A stretch of DNA of 29,721 nucleotides from a virus. Lineage: Duplodnaviria > Caudoviricetes. The stretch lies in the IMG/VR virus record IMGVR_UViG_3300027863_000561, positions 1 through 29,721 of that record; one strand, given 5' to 3'. Of the stretch, positions 1,045 through 10,676 are shown piece by piece; positions within the stretch are counted from its first letter, which is position 1, and every line of letters starts with the position of its first letter. The position numbers and the translations under genes were made by a program. Below the pieces are notes generated by a model, which was not told where the DNA came from, searched no databases, and worked only from the letters and a program-made list of their open reading frames with translations.

Positions 1045-2654
1045 TGGCGTCTCTGTTTTCCGAAGGTGGCAGGAAGCTGTTTCCGCTTCGCCCGTACCAG
1101 AACCACTGCATTCCCAAATTCCGGCAGGGAATCAAGGAGGGACATTTCCATTCCATAGGCCAAGCGCCATGCAGATATGGGAAGACCGTCGTCTCCGCCC
1201 ACATCATCGACAGCGCTTTGCGCAAAGGGGGCCGGTGCCTGTTTGCCGCTCCGCGAATCTCGCTTGTGGACCAGACGCTCGAATCTTTACAGCAGCAGGG
1301 CTTTACCGATATTGGCGTGATGCAAGCTGATCACTACCTCACCAATTCCGAGGCGCCGCTTCAGATTGCGTGCTTCGATACCCTATACCGCCGCAAGCCG
1401 GAAGACTTCGACCTCGTCATCCTGGACGAGGTGCACCTGTGCGACGCCCGCATGTGGGAGCTGAAGAAGAGGTGGAAAATAGTATTGGCGTGGACGGCGA
1501 CGCCTTGGGCGAAGGGCCTCGGGCTGCACTTCTCCAAGCTGCACGTTTTCGCCACGATTCCAGAGATGATCGAGTACAACCGCAAGGACGCCGCCCTGGG
1601 ACTTGTTCCGGGCAAAGGCATCGGGCCACGGGCCGACTTGATCGCTGGTGTGGACCGCCTACGGAAAAACGATGCTGGAGAGTTCGTCGAGAGCGAGGCA
1701 TGCGCCTTCATGGACCGCCATGAGGTGGTTGCGGACGAAGTGGAAACTTGGCTTCGCACCCGTCAGGAAGGCCGGCACCCCGGCGACAGGACATTGCATT
1801 TCATCAGGCGGAGGGCCAGCGCACAGCCGAGGCTGGAGGCGTTCGCCGCTCACGGCGTCCGATTCGAGTACATAGATTCCTACACCAACGATAGAAGCCC
1901 GATTTTCAGGCAGTTCCGGGAGCGAAAAATACAAGGCATCATCAGCGTAGGATGCGTGAGAGAAGGGGTTGACCTCGACGCCCGGTGTATCATCGATGCC
2001 GCGCCTTCCAACTCCGAGATGACCATCGTGCAGAAACTGATGCGCGGAGGGACGCCCGGAGAGGGCAAGGAATACTATTGGCTGAACGACCACGCGGGGA
2101 ACGCCAACCGATTTGGCTGGTATGAGGACATTCGCCACGACATGCTGGACTGTACGCCGCCCCACGTGAAAGGCTGTGCTTATCCCCAGGAAGAGGTTGC
2201 GCCGCAAGAGAAGAAGCAGCGCGAATGCCCCGCTTGCCGGTCCTTTGTAGGGAAGGGGGCTTTGAGTTGCCCGGTATGCGGCAAATCGCTTTACGACGAT
2301 CCAACCGTCGTTTTGGAAGGCCAGCTCGGGGAGCTGGTCCACGGAACCAGCGTCCAGAAGAAAAAGAGTGCCAGGAAACGTGAGTACACTATGCAGGAGA
2401 AGCAGGAATGGTTTTCTGGCCTCCTCTGGATTTACCAGAAACGCGGGTCGAAGAACCCCGAGGGCGCAGCCGCTCATCGGTACCGGGAAAAATTTGGCGT
2501 GTGGCCGAACAAGATGGAGAGGACGGCCCGGCAGCCATCATTGGAAGTGCAAATATACGAGCGCCACGGCAGAATCAAATACGCGAGGAGCCAAGCAAAC
2601 CTTTGTGGACATAGTGAAGATGCAGCAGAAAATTCGGGAACAGCTTCTCGATAG
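1044..2654 (+). CDS. Superfamily 2 DExH helicase with C-terminal zinc ribbon (phage RadD/YejH-like)
   Basis: Q-motif LRPYQ, Walker A APCRYGKT, ILDEVH, TATP, EGVDLD and CPAC...CPVC. Confidence 0.9.
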   Translation: MASLFSEGGRKLFPLRPYQNHCIPKFRQGIKEGHFHSIGQAPCRYGKTVVSAHIIDSALRKGGRCLFAAPRISLVDQTLESLQQQGFTDIGVMQADHYLTNSEAPLQIACFDTLYRRKPEDFDLVILDEVHLCDARMWELKKRWKIVLAWTATPWAKGLGLHFSKLHVFATIPEMIEYNRKDAALGLVPGKGIGPRADLIAGVDRLRKNDAGEFVESEACAFMDRHEVVADEVETWLRTRQEGRHPGDRTLHFIRRRASAQPRLEAFAAHGVRFEYIDSYTNDRSPIFRQFRERKIQGIISVGCVREGVDLDARCIIDAAPSNSEMTIVQKLMRGGTPGEGKEYYWLNDHAGNANRFGWYEDIRHDMLDCTPPHVKGCAYPQEEVAPQEKKQRECPACRSFVGKGALSCPVCGKSLYDDPTVVLEGQLGELVHGTSVQKKKSARKREYTMQEKQEWFSGLLWIYQKRGSKNPEGAAAHRYREKFGVWPNKMERTARQPSLEVQIYERHGRIKYARSQANLCGHSEDAAENSGTASR

Positions 2655-3024
2655 TTACTCGATAGGCAGAGGCGTCTCCCAGGCCCTTGCCGATCTCGAA
2701 GCTGTGCGGAAAGAGGCTGCATATGATGGCTGGGACGGCCATGGGGGGAAGGCACTAAGTCCGGAAGCTTGCGCCTTTGCCAGCGTCTTTTTGGAAGCGC
2801 TGCCTACCATCGCACCGATTCCCGAAATAAGTGCTGACAGTGATGGAGAGGTTTCCCTTGACTGGATATTTGGCCCTAAGAAAGCTTTGACAGTCAGCAT
2901 CGACGGGCGAGGAAGGTGCGCGTACGCATGGATGCTTGGGCAGATCAACTCTCGCGGAACAGATTGGATCACAGATGGAATCCCTGCAAACATTGCTTAT
3001 GCGCTGGATCAACTCACTGCGTAG
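2620..3024 (+). CDS. Hypothetical protein (WDG-x-G family); start uncertain
   Basis: Protein-like sequence YDGWDGHGGKALS...PEISADSDGEVSLDW...LTVSI. It overlaps the helicase 3' end, and the frame is open further upstream. Confidence 0.6.
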   Translation: MQQKIREQLLDSYSIGRGVSQALADLEAVRKEAAYDGWDGHGGKALSPEACAFASVFLEALPTIAPIPEISADSDGEVSLDWIFGPKKALTVSIDGRGRCAYAWMLGQINSRGTDWITDGIPANIAYALDQLTA

Positions 3025-4226: not shown

Positions 4227-4591
4227 GAGATCGCCACCGCGAAGCATGGACGGCGTTTTTCGAGGCCCGCGAACAAGCGAAGCCGTCGAAATACGGCAAC
4301 CAGCGAGCGGGGAAGTACGCAAGTAAGAAAGAAGCGGAGTATGCGGCCAAGTATGCCGCGCTCGAATCCGCCGGCGTAATCCGGCAATTGCGCGAGCAGG
4401 TACCATTTGAGTTAATACCTAAAGATGGTCGGCTCCGGGCCGTGAAGTACTATGCCGACTTCACCTACGTGGATGAGGGCGGCCTGCATGTGGTTGACAT
4501 CAAAGGGGGCAGCGCCACGAAAACGCCGGTCTACCGCTTGAAAAAGCGTCTGATGCGGCATCTGCTGGGGATCGATATTGAAGAAGTATGA
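4223..4591 (+). CDS. DUF1064-like PD-(D/E)xK endonuclease
   Basis: SKYGN...SKKEA...LREQVPFEL...YYADFTY...VVDIKG...YRLKKRLM. SD GGAGG. Confidence 0.85.
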   Translation: MRDRHREAWTAFFEAREQAKPSKYGNQRAGKYASKKEAEYAAKYAALESAGVIRQLREQVPFELIPKDGRLRAVKYYADFTYVDEGGLHVVDIKGGSATKTPVYRLKKRLMRHLLGIDIEEV

Positions 4592-4621
4592 AAAAGGGCC
4601 ACCCGGGGAGGGCGGCCCTTT
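4591..4621. terminator. Intrinsic terminator-like hairpin (better on the - strand)
   Basis: AAAGGGCC-A-CCC (4593-4604) pairs with GGG-C-GGCCCTTT (4610-4621). The A/C mismatch becomes G-U on the - strand, where a short U run follows. Confidence 0.55.
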
Positions 4622-4799
4622 GTGCGGGGTAGGACTATCTTTTGCCGAAGAAAGTGTTCGCATGAGGAGGAACAATGCCCCGCACCTGAAGTATCTCAGA
4701 TTTGATGATATTGCTCAAGTGCTGGGGAAAAAAATAACGGAGTTGGCCCAAAAGCCAAAACCCCCATCCGGGAGGAAGGGGGCTTTGGGACATACACGC

Positions 4800-5350
4800 A
4801 TTTAATGCCATCCCCTGGTCAAATGCTATTGAAATTCTACAGGACTTGTGCTGGAATAGCAATACCCCCGGTATCAAATGCAAAAACCCGCGACAATTCG
4901 TAAAACGTCAAAGTTTGGGCATTCTTGCGCCTGGGCATCCGGCCTCGCATGGAGTCGCTCCCGAGGTTTGCTGGCGGATAGAGAGCCGAGCCACCCAGCG
5001 TATATGCAAAGGACTTCTCGCGTGATAGCGGCAAGCTGATTGGATACAAGTCACCTGGCTTAGATGGCCGTGATGCCGGGTTGGGTGGCCCAAGGGACGA
5101 ATCAGTGAGTAGGGATTTGGCAATCCTGGCGAGAGTGAATGGACGAAAGATTTCTCTCCTTGTCGGAGAAATGCTCCAAATGGCAGGGAGTTGTTACCGG
5201 GCAATGGTTTCCACTGGCTTTTCTACCCCGGTCCCAAATGAGAGACGCGAAAAGAAATCGTCACGGTCCAACTTGGAAGTCCTTGAACATCGGCAGTTCC
5301 GGAAAGAGCGCAAAGGCGTCTCTCTAAGGGACTAAAAAGCCAGTGGTGTG
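4800..5350 (+). ncRNA. Candidate large structured non-coding RNA (unassigned family)
   Basis: Many nested helices, e.g. 5211-5222/5335-5346 (12 bp perfect), 5240-5248/5316-5324 (9 bp), 4990-4997/5082-5089 (8 bp) and 4934-4944/5066-5077. Non-canonical pairs are G-U on the + strand. No convincing ORF. Confidence 0.55.
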
Positions 5351-5376
5351 TCTATTTTAAAACGGGGAGGCATGAG

Positions 5377-5616
5377 ATGAGAAGAAAGGGATATTCTGCT
5401 GGAGATGGAATTGTAGATGGATGGAAGAAGTCGATAGCCGATCCAACTGCGGACTGGGGAAAGACGATTAGCGCAGCAATGCGACGCTCAGCCGAGATAA
5501 AGAAGATTCAAGAAAAACTTCATCGAAATGCAGCGATCATCACGCCGTCGAAGCTGGTAGGTAAGGTCGTGTTCGTGAATCCACAACTTGACAAAAACAG
5601 TCTAAAAGGAGAATGA
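5377..5616 (+). CDS. Hypothetical protein
   Basis: SD GGGGAGG upstream; 79 aa; no recognisable motif. Confidence 0.5.
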   Translation: MRRKGYSAGDGIVDGWKKSIADPTADWGKTISAAMRRSAEIKKIQEKLHRNAAIITPSKLVGKVVFVNPQLDKNSLKGE

Positions 5617-5617
5617 G

Positions 5618-5806
5618 ATGGGAATCAAAGAGATGTACAAGACTGAAATCCTCCAAGATACGGCTGGTAAATACGTAGGATGCGCTGTAATCAGGGCGAA
5701 TGATATTGTGGCAGCATCGACAAAAGCGCTTAATTCTGCCGATGATGCTAAAGAAGCAATCTCTGCCACTATCCAGCGGCTTTGGGTTGGGAACCCGGAG
5801 AAGTGA
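5618..5806 (+). CDS. Hypothetical protein
   Basis: SD AAGGAG upstream; 62 aa with a plausible beta-beta-beta-alpha pattern. Confidence 0.55.
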   Translation: MGIKEMYKTEILQDTAGKYVGCAVIRANDIVAASTKALNSADDAKEAISATIQRLWVGNPEK

Positions 5807-5868
5807 TTTACATGGGTAACTGGTAAGTAAACGCACGTCCTTCAATATTTATTTCTTCGTAAACAATG

Positions 5869-5910
5869 AAAAAGCTGGGCGGAAAAATTTCGCCCAGCCT
5901 CTCTTTCTTC
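5869..5910. terminator. Bidirectional intrinsic terminator between convergent gene blocks
   Basis: GCTGGGCG (5874-5881) pairs with CGCCCAGC (5891-5898). A-run on the left, pyrimidine run on the right. It sits where + and - gene blocks converge. Confidence 0.75.
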
Positions 5911-6035
5911 GTGCCGCCGTTGCGTAGGCGGCCCCGGTGTGTGTGGCCGGACGCTGTGCCTGTGTGGAGAATGAGACAGGCACAGACTGTTTCACCCCCT
6001 AAGCTCCCACCATGCGCCGCAGCAGCCCAGCCGGG

Positions 6036-10463: not shown

Positions 10464-10676
10464 TTAGCCAATAGCCGGGACCGCGATAGGAATAGCGCAT
10501 TTTGCCAGCGCTTCCATAATGAGGTCTGCCACAATTATCGAGTCGTCAAGATTGAGCCTGTGTGTCCTGACTACATCGCGGATTACGTCGGACCTTTTGA
10601 CGCCGGTCGAATACGTGTATTTAACGGCTATAGCAGCCGCCAGCTTTCCGACGTCAGCTTTGCTCATGCGCGTCAT
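10464..10676 (-). CDS. Hypothetical protein (70 aa) with its own promoter (moron-like)
   Basis: SD AGGAGG-AAACAACA-ATG directly downstream of promoter copy 2. Confidence 0.7.
   Translation of the reverse strand: MTRMSKADVGKLAAAIAVKYTYSTGVKRSDVIRDVVRTHRLNLDDSIIVADLIMEALAKCAIPIAVPAIG

Follow-up and report, generated by a model that had tools for sequence, protein, structure and literature searches.

Few replicon families that initiate from RNA are described in the accounts drawn on here, namely ColE1, MRB and the cluster A mycobacteriophages. Antisense RNAs also serve phage immunity: in the c4-icd-ant system of P1/P7 and the CI-kil system of P4, the transcript that holds the target is also the one from which c4 or CI is cut. 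In their published description, the MRB plasmids of Vibrionaceae encode a two-hairpin RNA I of 68 nt and an RNA II of 465 nt and share a conserved core of 110 bp (PMC3035462). RNA-based origins are described for the prophages of the cluster A mycobacteriophages RedRock, Alma and LadyBird (PMC7157519). Divergent type I loci, in the sources cited, include timR-timP, istR-tisB, ohsC-shoB, orz-zor and agrB-dinQ (PMC7667032, PMC4147584).

We describe here a locus, seen in 20 versions in uncultured phages, which sequence comparison indicates to be a real and uncatalogued module of two predicted RNAs. A first-pass annotation of positions 4800-5350 had proposed a large phage RNA. That RNA is one half of the module, its small antisense partner having been overlooked, and a lone call of a large RNA can conceal a two-RNA system. 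What that annotation observed is partly confirmed, and its interpretation as an undescribed large phage RNA is partly supported by the sequences. Support is good for the antisense switch of the module but not for the output of that switch.

Setting, promoter motifs and relatives of the cassette

The window, by which we mean the whole stretch of 29,721 nucleotides analyzed, is an entire virus record, about half complete, of a tailed phage. An SF2 helicase and methyltransferases are encoded, together with a resolvase of the DUF1064 family whose gene ends at 4591, and terminase genes begin at 10519. The flagged stretch sits between the resolvase and two small ORFs (Table 1), which are followed by a terminator-like hairpin at 5874-5898. 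The junction with minus-strand genes at 5874-6000 is hairpin-rich (z -4.5 for 5850-5999). Directly after the resolvase stop lies a GC-rich hairpin (4593-4621) that reads as a minus-strand terminator and shares a CC-GGGA-GG cap with 4751-4786, and a plus-strand ORF of 47 codons without a Pfam match (4662-4805) overlaps the small RNA gene at its 3' end. Homolog contigs diverge upstream of 4748. At gathering score Rfam gave no match in the window, an E-value scan gave sub-threshold matches only, ARAGORN found nothing, and Rfam on the 18 homolog loci gave no match except 3 tRNAs. Three tRNA genes lie upstream of the cassette in L337 (2790-3035).

Table 1. Predicted features of the cassette in the window
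Feature	Position	Strand	Remarks
Small RNA terminator hairpin and U tract	4750-4786	-	Terminator-like site; homolog-contig match
Predicted small antisense RNA, ~76 nt	4752-4828	-	5' hairpin with seed, then intrinsic terminator; z -2.63
Seed	4812-4826	-	Direct-repeat copy of leader 4865-4881; opposite strand, hence complementary
Sigma70-type promoter of long RNA	4829-4857	+	-35 TTGAAA 4829-4834; -10 TGGAAT 4852-4857
Sigma70-type promoter of small RNA	4834-4862	-	-35 TTGCTA 4862-4857; -10 TAGAAT 4839-4834
Predicted long RNA, ~490 nt	4864-5352	+	From promoter position and shared 3' end motif
Conserved 5' core	4864-4936	+	Irregular hairpin; 5' end/SD pairs with CCUGGGC 4930-4936; motifs GACAAUUCG 4892-4900 and CGUCAARG 4906-4913
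Leader ORF, 53 codons	4878-5039	+	Frame conserved, peptide not
Variable hairpin just 3' of core	4942-4967	+	Pairing probability 0.83-0.97; other contigs carry different hairpin sequences
3' terminal domain	5211-5352	+	Outer stem 5211-5222/5335-5346; CCGGUCC and GGG boxes; inner stem 5240-5248/5316-5324; GUGUGUC end
Two small downstream ORFs	5377-5806	+	79 and 62 aa; without known family; not conserved across the cassette family

The two promoter motifs diverge and overlap within 34 bp (4829-4862). In all 19 sequences of the family the plus-strand -10 element ends 32-37 nt before the core motif GACAATTCG. The plus-strand promoter scores at least 9 in 12 of 19, compared with 1.3% of random sites, and the minus-strand promoter does so in 10 of 19 homologs, compared with 0.7%. 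The plus-strand spacing therefore places the start of the long RNA near 4864, not at 4800 or 4592 as first proposed. It also takes the outer arms of the 5' nested helices of that proposal (4807-12 and 4843-49), which lie upstream of or inside the promoter, off the predicted RNA. A further minus-strand promoter motif, at 5383-5354 in the window, has no fixed place in homologs, and a conserved long antisense transcript was rejected as a candidate. In the window this motif would start an antisense transcript at about 5347, precisely where the 3' helix ends.

The first-pass annotation suggested collecting homologs downstream of DUF1064 genes. The 25 loci sought in this way showed no similarity, none of 18 records with DUF1064 relatives holds the element, and the link is incidental. 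Patterns from the window's 3' domain and upstream hairpin returned 120 chance loci, later patterns returned 0 and 0, and metagenomes returned only the window itself; the middle of the window therefore has no readable homolog. The segment 4876-4940 recurs in unrelated contigs (contigs from four runs), and two rhizosphere contigs match 4751-4789, with 2 differences, and 5299-5388, with 787 other letters between. Core patterns gave 30, 120 and 68 viral matches, from which 18 distinct sequences were kept by profile score and by eye. With the window these make up the family set of 19, and a 20th copy, the second in genome G406, was added by a covariance model. This model picked out 12 true loci among 96 at 70-88 bits, and over true copies it ranges from 59 to 88 bits, against at most 24 on others.

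All kept homologs are viral. A scan of the genome collection gave 40 matches, of which one (L373) is identical to phage locus L354 over 120 nt, with an equal model score, and the rest are chance. The annotated phages and plasmids yielded one chance match of 29-34 nt each, and the annotated phage collection no match to the cassette. Acidobacteriota, guessed as host from a transposase resemblance, were rejected: the element was not found in 401 genomes searched by DNA (21 short weak matches) or in 151 searched by model. We found no description of the element in the literature; three supplementary files of PMC10690425 do not contain the motif, and its other files may list it.

Two pairs of loci, L149/L353 and L152/L176, are identical from the core motif onward and have different promoters, small RNAs and seeds. 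Being identical only from that point, they suggest that modules are exchanged by crossing over at the motif. The sequences 3' of the core fall into classes (see below), and in two phages (L437:899-990, L341) the class H cassette abuts the large terminase gene at its 3' end and is oppositely oriented. The class H pair is too similar for covariation testing. In G406 a class H cassette stands alongside a class F cassette.

Predicted pairing of the small RNA with the leader

The first ~20 nt of the leader are repeated upstream, and an RNA from the minus strand would therefore be complementary to the leader. In the window the two copies agree at 14 positions, with 1 mismatch and a 2-nt gap. In 14 of 19 homologs a hairpin and U tract follow 76-139 nt after the small RNA start. 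Among the exceptions, L149 has none, the terminator of L337 lies at about 200 nt, and three sequences have their first match inside the first hairpin.

The seed word differs from phage to phage, and it does so together with its own leader. Over the 19 sequences the duplex energy averages -20.7 kcal/mol for cognate and -11.2 kcal/mol for non-cognate pairs; the own small RNA is the best partner for 15 of 19 leaders, and none of 100,000 permutations reaches the cognate mean. Three of the four exceptions share one seed and the fourth is the window, the weakest case, whose 17-nt duplex (-13.6 kcal/mol) ranks fifth; extended to 25 nt it reaches -20.8 kcal/mol and covers the AUG. Differences between the DNA repeat copies are tolerated as G-U 28 times and form A-C 5 times, a bias that may partly reflect SD selection on the leader. 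The seed is predicted to be unpaired (0.70 against 0.41; 17 of 19 sequences), and in 17 of 18 cases the start codon falls within the duplex. In G406 the second copy, located only by the model, has the promoter pair and an in-frame AUG. Its own duplex (-19.6 kcal/mol) is the best of 20, and pairings with the other cassette of the same genome give -6.4 and -7.2 kcal/mol. Because this copy was found afterwards it provides an independent test of the seed rule, which it fits.

These sequence comparisons make an antisense switch between the small RNA and the leader highly probable. The seed is absent at other promoters in 7 genomes, which disposes of the small RNA as a master regulator of many leaders.

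Leader frame and folding of the predicted long RNA

The stretch had been described as having no convincing ORF. This is only partly right. The ORF at 5081-5335 is unsupported, since a contig of 96% identity lacks one nucleotide at 5081. At 4878, however, a start codon with an SD-like signal is conserved in frame. In 18 of 19 sequences one particular frame has a start codon 5-7 codons ahead of the core motif, as compared with 4 and 5 for the other frames; the start of L149, a single contig, lies in another frame. Indels in the loop are always of 3 nt, 5 of 7 pairs stay in frame once their indels are summed, and the frame is open for 24-84 codons. Codon changes, 27 synonymous to 90 non-synonymous, are near neutral, searches with the leader peptide gave no protein family and no homolog, and all 10 matches of a fully degenerate codon scan were to the same nucleotide motif only. 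Constraint on the peptide was rejected on the last and first of these counts. With the frame kept and the peptide neutral, it is therefore translation, not the peptide, that appears to be selected. A RAPG-like text in the +1 frame, which we take to resemble an arrest motif, was also set aside, since stops precede it in 7 of 19.

The pairing of the 5' end with CCUGGGC shows compensatory changes in 3 of 7 pairs, and in predicted folding this helix hides the SD in the nascent RNA. In the longer RNA it is retained in 5 of 19 (probability above 0.6), CCUGGGC otherwise pairing elsewhere. Support for the 13-pair core structure is modest: its covariation is reached by 5 of 500 shuffles and its number of double-change pairs by 122 of 500, and RNAalifold on the core returns an alternative 9-pair fold without compensatory change. 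A pseudoknot partner for the AAUUCG loop was sought and no conserved position was found. Strand signals are mixed in the inner GAC/GUC stem, which is flanked by C-A on the plus strand and pairs better on the minus strand; the SD helix, class E and a C-to-U change in the second G406 copy favor plus.

Past the core the long RNAs form about 8 classes that cannot be aligned with one another, and the window aligns with none. The layout of its 3' domain is found, with different stem sequences, in L152, L194, L298 and L354, and for each stem only the cognate pairing of 120 permutations attains the observed length. In class E (4 sequences, 76% identity) 95% of cells are paired and 22 of 88 pairs are compensatory, against 0 of 500 shuffles, for a structure derived from the same alignment of only four sequences. 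Class E conservation extends far past the stop codons. The covariation that the first-pass annotation suggested looking for is thus seen in the 3' domain of the window and in a single further 3' class, and only within classes. Folded one sequence at a time, the 260 nt that follow the core go beyond z -2 in only 3 of 19. Of 9 paired sites in the fold predicted for the window, 6 are broken by substitutions in a 96% relative.

The 12 helices initially named are all complementary at their coordinates. No more than four of them prove stable when the plus strand is folded, with mean pairing probabilities above 0.8, namely 5211/5346, 5231/5332, 5240/5324 and 4942/4967; the remaining eight have plus-strand probabilities of 0.00-0.32. 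Short stems are not above shuffles, contrary to the impression of a region saturated with helices: perfect stems of at least 5, 6 and 7 bp are matched by 53, 94 and 18 of 300 shuffles. Stems of 9-12 bp do stand out, being reached by 3 and 2 of 300. By folding energy the whole of 4800-5350 does not go beyond shuffles on the plus strand (MFE z -1.17; -2.38 on the minus strand), nor does the middle, 4864-5204 (-0.97 plus, -0.86 minus), and the 3' domain does (5205-5356; -3.2 plus, -4.2 minus). Among 150-nt windows near the flagged stretch, only 5200-5349 and the hairpins at about 4550-4800 beat shuffles. A long, structured plus-strand RNA without an Rfam family is upheld by the promoter spacing and the 3' covariation. 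The idea of a single ornate RNA of about 550-760 nt, of the GOLLD or ROOL kind, had to be given up in view of the unrelated 3' classes and a 5' end predicted to be translated.

In L163 (2900-3130) tandem direct repeats and a purine-skewed tract lie downstream of the RNA and together resemble a remnant replication-initiator linker. Imperfect palindromes, which we take to resemble IHF or recombinase binding sites, lie just behind the RNA, 290-520 nt after the core, in L149, L152 and L163.

Possible outputs and comparison with known systems

What the full module does is less certain than the switch. Our leading but tentative reading of the sequences is that the cassette is a portable two-RNA unit whose full-length long RNA would serve as a replication-primer precursor under copy-number control. 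Nascent long RNA would first hide the SD, and a ribosome on the leader ORF would then let transcription reach the 3' domain. Where the small RNA covered the SD and start codon, the long RNA would go untranslated and would either terminate early or misfold. The last steps are the least certain: surviving RNA may hybridize with DNA and, in the manner of ColE1 RNA II, prime replication, and incompatibility would be determined by the seed. The fuller proposition of a translation-gated, seed-swappable, RNA-primed replicon, carried by a phage clade without initiator or primase and divided into at least a dozen incompatibility types, we hold to be possible but somewhat doubtful.

A primer of the ColE1/MRB kind is our best guess because neither an integrase nor an initiator nor a catalytic primase was found in the complete genomes tested. 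Tyrosine or serine integrase, ParA, Toprim_3 and the primase zinc ribbon were found in none of 5 complete genomes, and the HTH_36 initiator, Toprim_2 and Prim-Pol in none of 6, with no DnaC-like match over the cut-off. Of the searches, those that also returned the SF2 helicases covered most but not all of the 316 ORFs of at least 100 aa in the complete genomes. The absences are soft, since the majority of the genes lack a family and ParB-like genes found by PHROGs escaped the genome search. All 6 complete genomes have an SF2 helicase, and in G406, G408 and G410 the gene after it carries a primase zinc domain or a DnaB N-terminal domain alone. In the window, the short protein after the helicase (2368-3024) has unnamed look-alikes only.

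The neighbors of the cassette vary (ParB-like, Erf, methyltransferase, HNH, resolvase, terminase), and 3 of 20 copies, those of L194 and L341 and the second one of G406, are followed by a convergent gene. The unit can therefore stand alone, which supports a primer output. The core is the only ORF-free segment that is shared with 3 or more other genomes among 7, all of which carry the element and were chosen via it. The cumulative GC minimum falls within 13% of the element in 6 of 6 genomes, a position confounded by gene direction. Skew at four-fold sites fits a bidirectional origin in just 3 of 6, which counts against the primer. So do the roughly 8 unalignable 3' classes, odd for one priming chemistry, the weak duplex of the window and a middle no better than shuffles, the presence of two copies in G406, the inner stem that pairs better on the minus strand, and the divergent small RNA and leader ORF, which are unlike ColE1/MRB, where the small RNA lies inside the long one and a leader ORF is not known.

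Also counting against the primer is a small co-directional ORF downstream of the RNA in most copies. One small ORF, beginning MWT(A/P)KRFFSPEQ, is the first after the RNA behind three different 3' classes in L164, L298 and L343 and is broken in L343. Downstream ORFs suggest another output of the same switch, the expression of small genes behind the long RNA through a translation-coupled attenuator leader of the type of P1 c4/icd or P4 CI/kil, giving phage-specific immunity or timing. Translation-coupled read-through predicts that SD, start codon and open frame are retained while the peptide is not conserved, and in the full RNA of most homologs a downstream pairing takes the place of the helix that hides the SD. 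The window has two ORFs and then a terminator, and an HTH_3 repressor was not seen in 3 of 6 complete genomes. We nevertheless consider this output somewhat less likely than the primer: the downstream genes are unrelated between phages, the convergent genes leave no room for a target, and the conserved 3' folds exceed what a leader needs. In addition, L149, L152 and L322 show by eye an extra promoter motif before the next gene, and Rfam gave no C4-clan match.

It is improbable that the cassette is a type I toxin-antitoxin-like addiction or exclusion device, with a harmful leader peptide or RNA and the small RNA as antitoxin. Its divergent, partly complementary layout is that described for timR-timP, tisB-istR and shoB-ohsC (PMC7667032, PMC4147584), its SD is hidden in a helix, it stands alone in varied places and orientations, and the two copies in G406 do not cross-react; such a device would be useful to a non-integrating prophage. 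The peptide, however, varies from 29 to 89 aa and evolves neutrally, with L149 starting in another frame and the degenerate codon scan recovering only the nucleotide motif, and no small ORF is strongly hydrophobic (highest 15-residue mean 1.7). Moreover, the divergent antitoxins of E. coli, as described in PMC4147584, do not overlap the start region, whereas the small RNA here does.

We also give little credence to the repeats being DNA operators for a phage repressor with incidental folds, or to the long RNA being a stand-alone ornate RNA: direct repeats do lie on either side of the overlapping promoters, an arrangement seen at switches under protein control, folding of the window's region and of most of the segments after the core is no better than chance, and class E covariation argues for a real large fold, but the wobble bias, the seed in a loop and the promoter-terminator frame point to RNA-RNA pairing, no repressor gene travels with the cassette among the neighbors compared, and the unrelated 3' classes argue against one RNA family.

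With 20 natural variants and their matched seeds, every step of the primer reading and of the switch is testable by swaps. Should the module be only a gene switch, it would still be an uncatalogued antisense module with promoters overlapping within 34 bp and many naturally orthogonal small RNA/leader pairs, which would be of direct use for synthetic translational control.

The element belongs to none of the known systems with which we compared it. GOLLD, ROOL and HK022 put resemble it in being phage-borne and several hundred nt long with a promoter-proximal conserved fold. The cassette differs in that only ~75 nt are conserved family-wide, the 5' end is predicted to be translated and there is a dedicated antisense partner; neither an Rfam model match nor one fold over the whole length was found. 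As with c4 and CI, the antisense RNA is predicted to block a short ORF gating read-through, and specificity lies in a short seed; the covered start codon and the kept frame would fit such gating of transcription. Unlike c4 and CI, the small RNA is on the opposite strand with its own promoter, no antirepressor lies downstream, and there is no C4-type Rfam match. The par locus of Enterococcus likewise has direct repeats read oppositely, but par is convergent.

Divergent type I loci share with the cassette adjacent divergent genes and a small RNA, ending in a terminator, that is complementary over ~18 nt to the 5' region of its partner in the cases described (PMC7667032, PMC4147584). A conserved small hydrophobic toxin peptide was not found in the cassette. 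The SD and start codon, over which its small RNA is predicted to lie, are at the extreme 5' end, its promoters overlap, and its structured part lies 3' of the ORF start. The cassette phages resemble RedRock, Alma and LadyBird, which are described as non-integrating without RepA and as having an ORF-free transcribed region of 400-500 bp (PMC7157519), and a ParB-like gene is nearby in 4 homolog loci. They differ in the absence of ParA from 5 of 5 genomes, and the published account of the mycobacteriophages gives no small antisense partner or leader ORF (PMC7157519).

Compared with MRB and ColE1, the cassette has an SD and leader ORF on the long RNA and no sequence similarity to plasmid records. 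RNA II in those plasmids spans all of RNA I (PMC3035462), whereas the small RNA here is not wholly within the long RNA's template; its promoter diverges, and it would pair via a duplicated word of ~20 nt. What the cassette appears to share with MRB and ColE1, as these are described, is a pair of RNAs from opposite strands, a small two-hairpin repressor with its own promoter and terminator and a replicon-specific 5' loop, element-specific pairing, and a long RNA of similar size with a short conserved core and a variable rest (PMC3035462). Those plasmids also have no Rep protein (PMC3035462). In 5-6 complete genomes of the cassette phages a soft search, with most genes lacking a family, detected no Rep initiator or primase.
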